This document shows positions 23,055 through 23,285 of a stretch of DNA of 37,766 nucleotides, piece by piece. Within the stretch, counting starts at the first letter, position 1. Each line of letters opens with the position of its first letter. The notes under the pieces are model-generated. The model was not told the origin of the DNA, made no database searches, and worked only from the letters and a program-made list of their open reading frames with translations. The stretch is from Escherichia coli (GTDB lineage: Bacteria; Pseudomonadota; Gammaproteobacteria; Enterobacterales; Enterobacteriaceae): NCBI RefSeq assembly GCF_003334305.1, contig NZ_QOWS01000031.1, one strand, 5' to 3'. Both the position numbers and the translations under genes were made by a program.

Positions 23055-23173
23055 TGCTTTCCTCTTTTTTCAGGGGTATTACTGCGCGAGGAAACTAACA
23101 GTAAAATTCTGAATCTTTTTGCGCGAAATCAAAAAGAACACGTGTTTGCCACAAAATAATCCGCCTGCGCAAA

Positions 23174-23187
23174 TTGACCTACCTCAA
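23174..23187. promoter_or_regulatory. FNR-like site TTGAC-N4-CTCAA in fdnG / yddG divergent promoter region
   Basis: Matches FNR consensus TTGAT-N4-ATCAA at 8/10 positions; located about 120 nt upstream of fdnG ATG; fdnG is known to be anaerobically induced. Confidence 0.4.
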
Positions 23188-23285
23188 TAGCGGTAGAAAA
23201 ACGCACCACTGCCTGACAGGCCAGTTAAAAAAATGCTATAAAATTCAGCTTAATTTTTAACGGCAAGAGAGACAAAACAGCGAGC

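Follow-up and report, generated by a model that had tools for sequence, protein, structure and literature searches.

The stretch analysed here (the window, 37,766 nucleotides) is E. coli chromosome: a 551-bp query that includes the motif discussed below matches 5,414 of 5,426 complete E. coli genomes, with fdnG and yddG as the annotated genes. Among the matches to the locus, six fall in plasmid-labelled records of complete E. coli assemblies. The genes, their spacer and the motif are as follows.

20007-23054, minus strand: fdnG coding region (formate dehydrogenase-N alpha subunit), ATG at 23054
23055-23285: fdnG/yddG spacer, 231 bp
23174-23187: flagged FNR-type inverted repeat, TTGACCTACCTCAA (TTGAGGTAGGTCAA on the fdnG strand), centred at -97.5 from the fdnG start
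23286-24167, plus strand: yddG coding region (aromatic amino acid efflux DMT transporter)

The spacer has the extent given in an earlier reading made from the sequence alone (231 bp between fdnG on the minus strand and yddG on the plus strand). In the list of open reading frames fdnG is represented by two pieces, 22467-23054 (195 aa) and 20007-22418 (803 aa). An in-frame TGA at 22464-22466 on the minus strand divides them; as expected for formate dehydrogenase-N it is the selenocysteine codon, and fdnG is not a pseudogene. The K-12-type spacer, likewise 231 bp long, has three base differences from the window, all outside the motifs, so the K-12 literature applies directly to the window. Window positions 23174-23187 correspond to 1,545,292-1,545,305 of K-12 (U00096.2). 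This mapping was built on the MG1655 gene coordinates and was confirmed by the match of the 14-mer to its published coordinate.

The sequence-only reading held that the 14-mer at 23174-23187 fits the FNR consensus, which is correct (TTGACCTACCTCAA is present). Whether the fit exceeds chance varies with the test. There are 31 matches in the window with at most two mismatches to TTGAT-N4-ATCAA, versus 20 +/- 4 expected, and by this count the site is not distinctive and not above chance. The exact core TTGA-N6-TCAA occurs once in the 37.8-kb window, at the flagged site (0.89 expected). Because simple consensus counting does not pick out the site, we used a weight matrix made from the 62 other ChIP-bound FNR sites of Myers et al. 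(2013), with the flagged site itself excluded. The 14-mer scores 15.87 bits and ranks first of 37,753 window positions, near and slightly above the median of the bound training sites (15.3 bits). The probability of such a score in a random 14-mer is ~3.5e-6, which gives an expectation of 0.13 per window and 7.6e-4 per spacer. Having both the TTGA-N6-TCAA core and a good matrix score, the 14-mer qualifies as an FNR target sequence.

The fdnGHI control region was reportedly treated by Li & Stewart in 1992, Li et al. in 1994, Darwin et al. in 1996 and Wang & Gunsalus in 2003. For E. coli fdnG, Babujee et al. (2012) place NarL heptamers at -77, -100, -109 and -124 and describe a conserved upstream FNR site at -42.5. 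We scanned each candidate fdnG start from 23060 to 23110 against these five published positions. Only one start, the A at 23083 (29 nt upstream of the fdnG ATG), fits all five, with 22/28 heptamer matches; the next-best starts reach 17/28 and have negative FNR scores. From the published positions we infer that fdnG transcription starts at 23083. The window and the published fdnGHI region are the same locus, with the five positions fitting one start and nothing differing between them. The features of the fdnG side are then as follows.

23083-23100, minus strand: fdnG core promoter, start placed at 23083, with extended -10-like TGtTAGTTT at 23092-23100
23119-23132, minus strand: FNR site at the published -42.5, TTGATTTCGCGCAA on the fdnG strand (TTGCGCGAAATCAA on the other)
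23157-23163: NarL heptamer at -77, TAATCCG (5/7), position from Babujee et al. (2012)
23180-23195: NarL/NarP 7-2-7 inverted heptamer pair, TACCTCA-AT-AGCGGTA, heptamer centres at -100 and -109
23204-23210: NarL heptamer at -124, CACCACT (5/7), position from Babujee et al. (2012)

Given this start, the flagged motif is centred at -97.5; it is a sequence inside the published fdnGHI region that overlaps the -100 heptamer. TACCTCA at -100 and AGCGGTA at -109 (TACCGCT on the other strand) each match TACYYMT at 6/7 positions. Inverted and separated by 2 bp at the published -100 and -109 positions, they form a 7-2-7 site of the same construction (inverted TACYYMT heptamers, 2-bp spacer) as in the known class, for which fdnG, napF, nirB and nrfA are the promoters named. 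On the fdnG strand the flagged motif runs from -104 to -91 and the pair TACCGCT-AT-TGAGGTA from -112 to -97. The two sites have 8 bp in common, and the TTGAG half-site therefore consists of the spacer T and the -100 heptamer. The position of this promoter-distal half inside a NarL/NarP site went unrecognised in the sequence-only reading.

A second FNR-like site in the spacer, at 23119-23132, was also overlooked there; it scores 10.5 bits and ranks seventh in the window. FNR sites that activate from a class II position are centred near -41.5 or -42.5, and the flagged motif, at -97.5, is not. The FNR site at the published activating position of fdnG is the one at 23119-23132, centred at -42.5. 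The sequence-only interpretation holds to the extent that a good FNR-type motif lies in an FNR-occupied spacer, but the activating position belongs to another site.

We compared the spacer with its counterparts in other enterobacterial genomes, recovered by a YddG scan using one genome per species. The scan returned 80 loci, 63 of them with the divergent fdnG-yddG order, and these 63 yielded 62 distinct spacers, the window's included (Escherichia, Citrobacter, Salmonella, Klebsiella, Raoultella, Enterobacter, Kluyvera, Kosakonia, Leclercia, Lelliottia and other genera). The -42.5 FNR site is present in all 62 spacers, at 10.5-16.1 bits, most commonly in the form TTGATTTGACGCAA. Four more elements of the fdnG side are kept across genera: TGCTGTTAGTTT downstream of that site, the block from -78 to -69, the Shine-Dalgarno sequence and the ends of the 7-2-7 pair. 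The 7-2-7 arrangement as such is retained too. The flagged motif fails this phylogenetic footprint. At the aligned position it reaches at least 10 bits in the four Escherichia spacers (4/4) and only there; 56 of the 58 non-Escherichia spacers, those that could be scored, give at most 4.3 bits, and two Salmonella spacers have a gap at that position, with no FNR-like sequence there. The distal half of the motif, GGTCAA, is not conserved across the spacers. Within Escherichia the picture is one of constancy: the 36-mer around the motif occurs in 5,356 of 5,426 E. coli genomes (identical in 4,090 records), and in divergent Escherichia representatives the 14-mer is unchanged while neighbouring bases vary. 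Conservation confined to Escherichia makes the motif, as judged from these alignments, a probable lineage-specific gain beside an older NarL site.

The main rival account is that FNR does not bind the motif appreciably in vivo. The -100 NarL heptamer supplies most of an FNR half-site by itself (TGAGGTA gives TTGAgg), and a chance TCAA nearby would complete an unbound look-alike, with all of the ChIP signal coming from the -42.5 site and its associated RNA polymerase. One half of the motif would on that account be selected for NarL and not FNR, and the other half is the one that is unconserved beyond Escherichia. The score speaks on the other side: at 15.9 bits the motif beats the median of bound sites and far exceeds the accepted -42.5 site (10.5 bits). 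The invariance of the 14-mer in divergent Escherichia, despite variation in the neighbouring bases, also argues against a mere look-alike.

Occupancy data bear on the same choice. The 14-mer has already been published as an FNR-like site: Table S6 of Myers et al. (2013; PLoS Genet 9:e1003565) gives TTGAGGTAGGTCAA at 1545292, yddG/fdnG, as a predicted FNR site (PatSer 14.43, ln p -12.93) that lies under an FNR ChIP-seq peak and is not marked as overlapping a nucleoid protein. Their 14-mer is identical to ours and their peak is assigned to fdnG; unlike in the present analysis, the NarL overlap and the second site at -42.5 are not discussed, and the -42.5 site, which is under their PWM threshold, is not listed. 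FNR occupancy had been named as a check by the sequence-only reading, and the spacer is FNR-bound in three studies, with peaks that cover it at a resolution too coarse to split -97.5 from -42.5. The ChIP-seq summit of Myers et al. (2013) is at 1,545,309 and was found by ChIP-chip as well as by each of the three peak finders; Grainger et al. (2007) have a ChIP-chip FNR peak for yddG/fdnG at 1,545,174; and Federowicz et al. (2014) report Fnr at 1,545,268-1,545,543 fermentatively (occupancy 6.22) and at 1,544,314-1,546,189 with nitrate (occupancy 106.67). No FNR motif is called at the locus in Table S6 of the last study ('Fnr motifs'), where the row is the same as in the ArcA table (S5). The searchable literature, which does not include the primary fdnG mutation and footprinting papers, contains no report of FNR contact with the 14-mer; matches to it were irrelevant or primers. 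The -97.5 sequence may have been noted by Li & Stewart in 1992, but nothing here depends on this.

The nitrate-free ChIP-seq summit lies 10.5 bp from the centre of the -97.5 motif and 44.5 bp from that of the -42.5 site, which counts against the look-alike. In the same tables the median summit-to-site distance is 24 bp and 32% of sites are at least 44.5 bp off, so the summit favours -97.5 only weakly. With the two sites 55 bp apart, the summit does not discriminate between them, a point for the look-alike, and after this calibration we rejected it as an arbiter of which site is bound. The response to nitrate also speaks for the look-alike. FNR occupancy rises 17-fold with nitrate, when phospho-NarL should cover the motif, so the nitrate-raised signal should not come from -97.5. 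The likeliest source of the rise is FNR at -42.5, joined with NarL and RNA polymerase in a productive complex. Against the look-alike stands the finding of Myers et al. (2013) that strong predicted sites are generally bound when they are not masked by nucleoid proteins, with no masking flagged here. On balance we regard the look-alike as a fairly unlikely account.

The yddG side of the spacer appears to have a promoter of its own.

23213-23244, plus strand: predicted yddG promoter, -35 CTGACA at 23213-23218, 18-nt spacer, extended -10 TGcTATAAA(AT) at 23234-23244

The prediction rests on conservation and a sigma-70 peak rather than on a consensus scan. TGCTATAA on this side is conserved in most of the 62 spacers, and a published sigma-70 ChIP-seq peak (1,545,240, window 23239) falls on the predicted promoter. 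The consensus promoter and terminator scan of 22950-23400 reported nothing, and was silent at the yddG promoter because its rule demands T at position 6 of the -10 element and misses TGcTATAAA. No mapped yddG start is contained in the supplements of Kim et al. (2012) or Ettwiller et al. (2016). The predicted start, at about 23248-23252, puts the flagged motif at about -67 to -72.

The sequence-only reading had raised the idea that yddG is co-regulated by oxygen or nitrate through this site. In that case FNR would control yddG by class I-type activation or by repression, tying aromatic amino acid export to oxygen and nitrate. The geometry offers some encouragement: the site is ~67-72 bp upstream of the predicted yddG start, near the class I position at -71.5 (we used -61.5, -71.5, -82.5 and -92.5 as class I FNR positions), and the sigma-70 and FNR peaks are ~69 bp apart in anaerobic cells. 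If TATAAA is taken as the hexamer, however, the motif would sit at about -67.5 to -69.5, probably between the favoured class I helical faces. The yddG promoter is kept across ~20 genera, and the flagged motif is not.

Published expression data contain no FNR-dependent change in the yddG transcript. In Tables S3 and S4 of Federowicz et al. (2014), yddG is N/D in the fnr mutants under both fermentative and nitrate conditions, called as neither activated nor repressed, while fdnGHI is called FNR-activated with nitrate. Table S9 of Myers et al. (2013) enters the yddG/fdnG peak as one without fnr-dependent change and estimates its target to be fdnG. Their Tables S8 and S12, of fnr-dependent and O2-dependent operons, do not include yddG, and they list no significant response of sigma-70 occupancy to O2 at the locus. 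These negatives come from array and RNA-seq surveys, and N/D from microarrays for a poorly expressed, H-NS-covered gene, so that a small effect could escape. With no FNR-dependent change of yddG in two genome-scale data sets, the proposed co-regulation through the flagged site is not borne out, and we consider it very improbable. A weaker variant would have the same FNR dimer modestly affect the yddG promoter ~70 bp away under conditions beyond those assayed.

Other proteins have been placed on the yddG side. An anaerobic H-NS ChIP-chip region in Table S3 of Myers et al. (2013) covers 1,542,991-1,545,296 (window 23183-25488); it spans the whole of yddG and ends inside the flagged FNR-like motif. 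This region could explain both the low expression of yddG and a sharp boundary to FNR access. Federowicz et al. (2014) give an ArcA-type motif, TAGCATTTTTTTAAC, at window 23224-23238 (K-12 1,545,241-1,545,255), in a peak assigned to fdnGHI and yddG; the motif overlaps the spacer between the yddG -35 and -10 elements. One predicted CpxR box in the fdnG-yddG spacer is described in a 2022 paper (PMC9600279), in which CpxR bound the promoter fragments tested and fdnG and yddG both changed in a CpxR-dependent manner. CpxR is thus a different candidate than FNR for shared regulation of the two genes.

A further possibility concerns fdnG itself. The title of Green et al. (1998) states that FNR at -93.5 of yfiD down-regulates the -40.5 promoter. 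The yfiD (grcA) and fdnG promoters are alike in having two FNR-type sites ~53-55 bp apart with the proximal one at a class II position: the separation is 55 bp here versus 53 bp at yfiD (2,714,579 and 2,714,632). They differ in that the distal site of fdnG overlaps a response-regulator site and is lineage-specific, and in that down-regulation by it is only hypothetical. On the yfiD pattern, the Escherichia-only, high-affinity FNR site at -97.5 would damp FNR activation from -42.5 when nitrate is absent, phospho-NarL or NarP would evict FNR from it, and nitrate induction would then combine activation with relief. The 8-bp overlap of the FNR and NarL sites would suit such an eviction, and fdnG has an FNR peak but no FNR-dependent expression when nitrate is absent. 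In enterobacterial plant pathogens whose fdn lacks the NarL heptamers, expression does not need nitrate (Babujee et al., 2012), which also points this way. The motif is found only in Escherichia, however, whereas nitrate dependence through the NarL sites is general, so any damping would be a lineage-specific add-on. The requirement for NarL as co-activator, moreover, already accounts for silence without nitrate. We therefore hold a yfiD-type arrangement to be distinctly doubtful.

The account that we favour, and consider likely, is that the 14-mer is a genuine FNR-type target at -97.5 that is secondary for fdnG and has no detectable effect on yddG. In the published model, anaerobic, nitrate-induced expression of fdnGHI would depend on FNR at -42.5 together with phospho-NarL (or NarP) at the -77 to -124 heptamers. 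The 14-mer was probably gained within Escherichia, superimposed on the conserved NarL/NarP 7-2-7 site. Its TTGAG half would be made up of one spacer base and the -100 NarL heptamer, which leaves GGTCAA as the sole new half. Among the 62 spacers, the flank of the 7-2-7 site completes an FNR inverted repeat only in Escherichia fdnG. FNR probably binds the -97.5 sequence in the absence of nitrate; once nitrate is present, the 8 bp common to the two sites make its displacement by phospho-NarL or NarP probable. Any effect of the -97.5 site on fdnG would be secondary at most, and yddG, with its own conserved extended -10 promoter, would experience little or no consequence.

The fdnG control region is a textbook example of a promoter governed by FNR and NarL together, and the finding matters little. 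It does provide a correction, in that the top consensus match in a promoter region need not be the operative site. Here, the activating position is taken by a site that is weaker but conserved in every spacer, and the stronger match is confined to one lineage, where it overlaps a NarL site. On a small scale, FNR and NarL may compete at -97.5 to -104.5, which may tune fdnG in Escherichia.

Three further observations come from the comparison of spacers. The block at 23152-23161 (fdnG -78 to -69) reads GACTATTAAG in the majority of other genera and GATTATTTTG in E. coli, and is among the best-conserved parts of the spacer in the 58 non-Escherichia genomes. The weak -77 heptamer at its edge would not explain so high a degree of conservation, so the block may bind another factor or act as an UP-like element. 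In Pseudocitrobacter vendiensis (L057), TTAACGAAAGTCAA scores 10.4 bits, with its centre ~120 bp upstream of the ATG of fdnG. No other non-Escherichia spacer has an upstream FNR-like sequence of at least 10 bits. The P. vendiensis sequence is ~6 bp off the register of the E. coli -97.5 motif and may be an independent chance gain. Lastly, an insertion of ~55 bp is located between the fdnG -10 region and the ribosome-binding site in L007-L013, L015, L017, L018, L022, L023, L032, L039, L056 and L069, which comprise many Citrobacter, two Salmonella, one Enterobacter and one Phytobacter (up to ~150 bp in the last two). The insertion makes the fdnG leader longer and resembles a repeat (CCGCGCT-GGCGCA).
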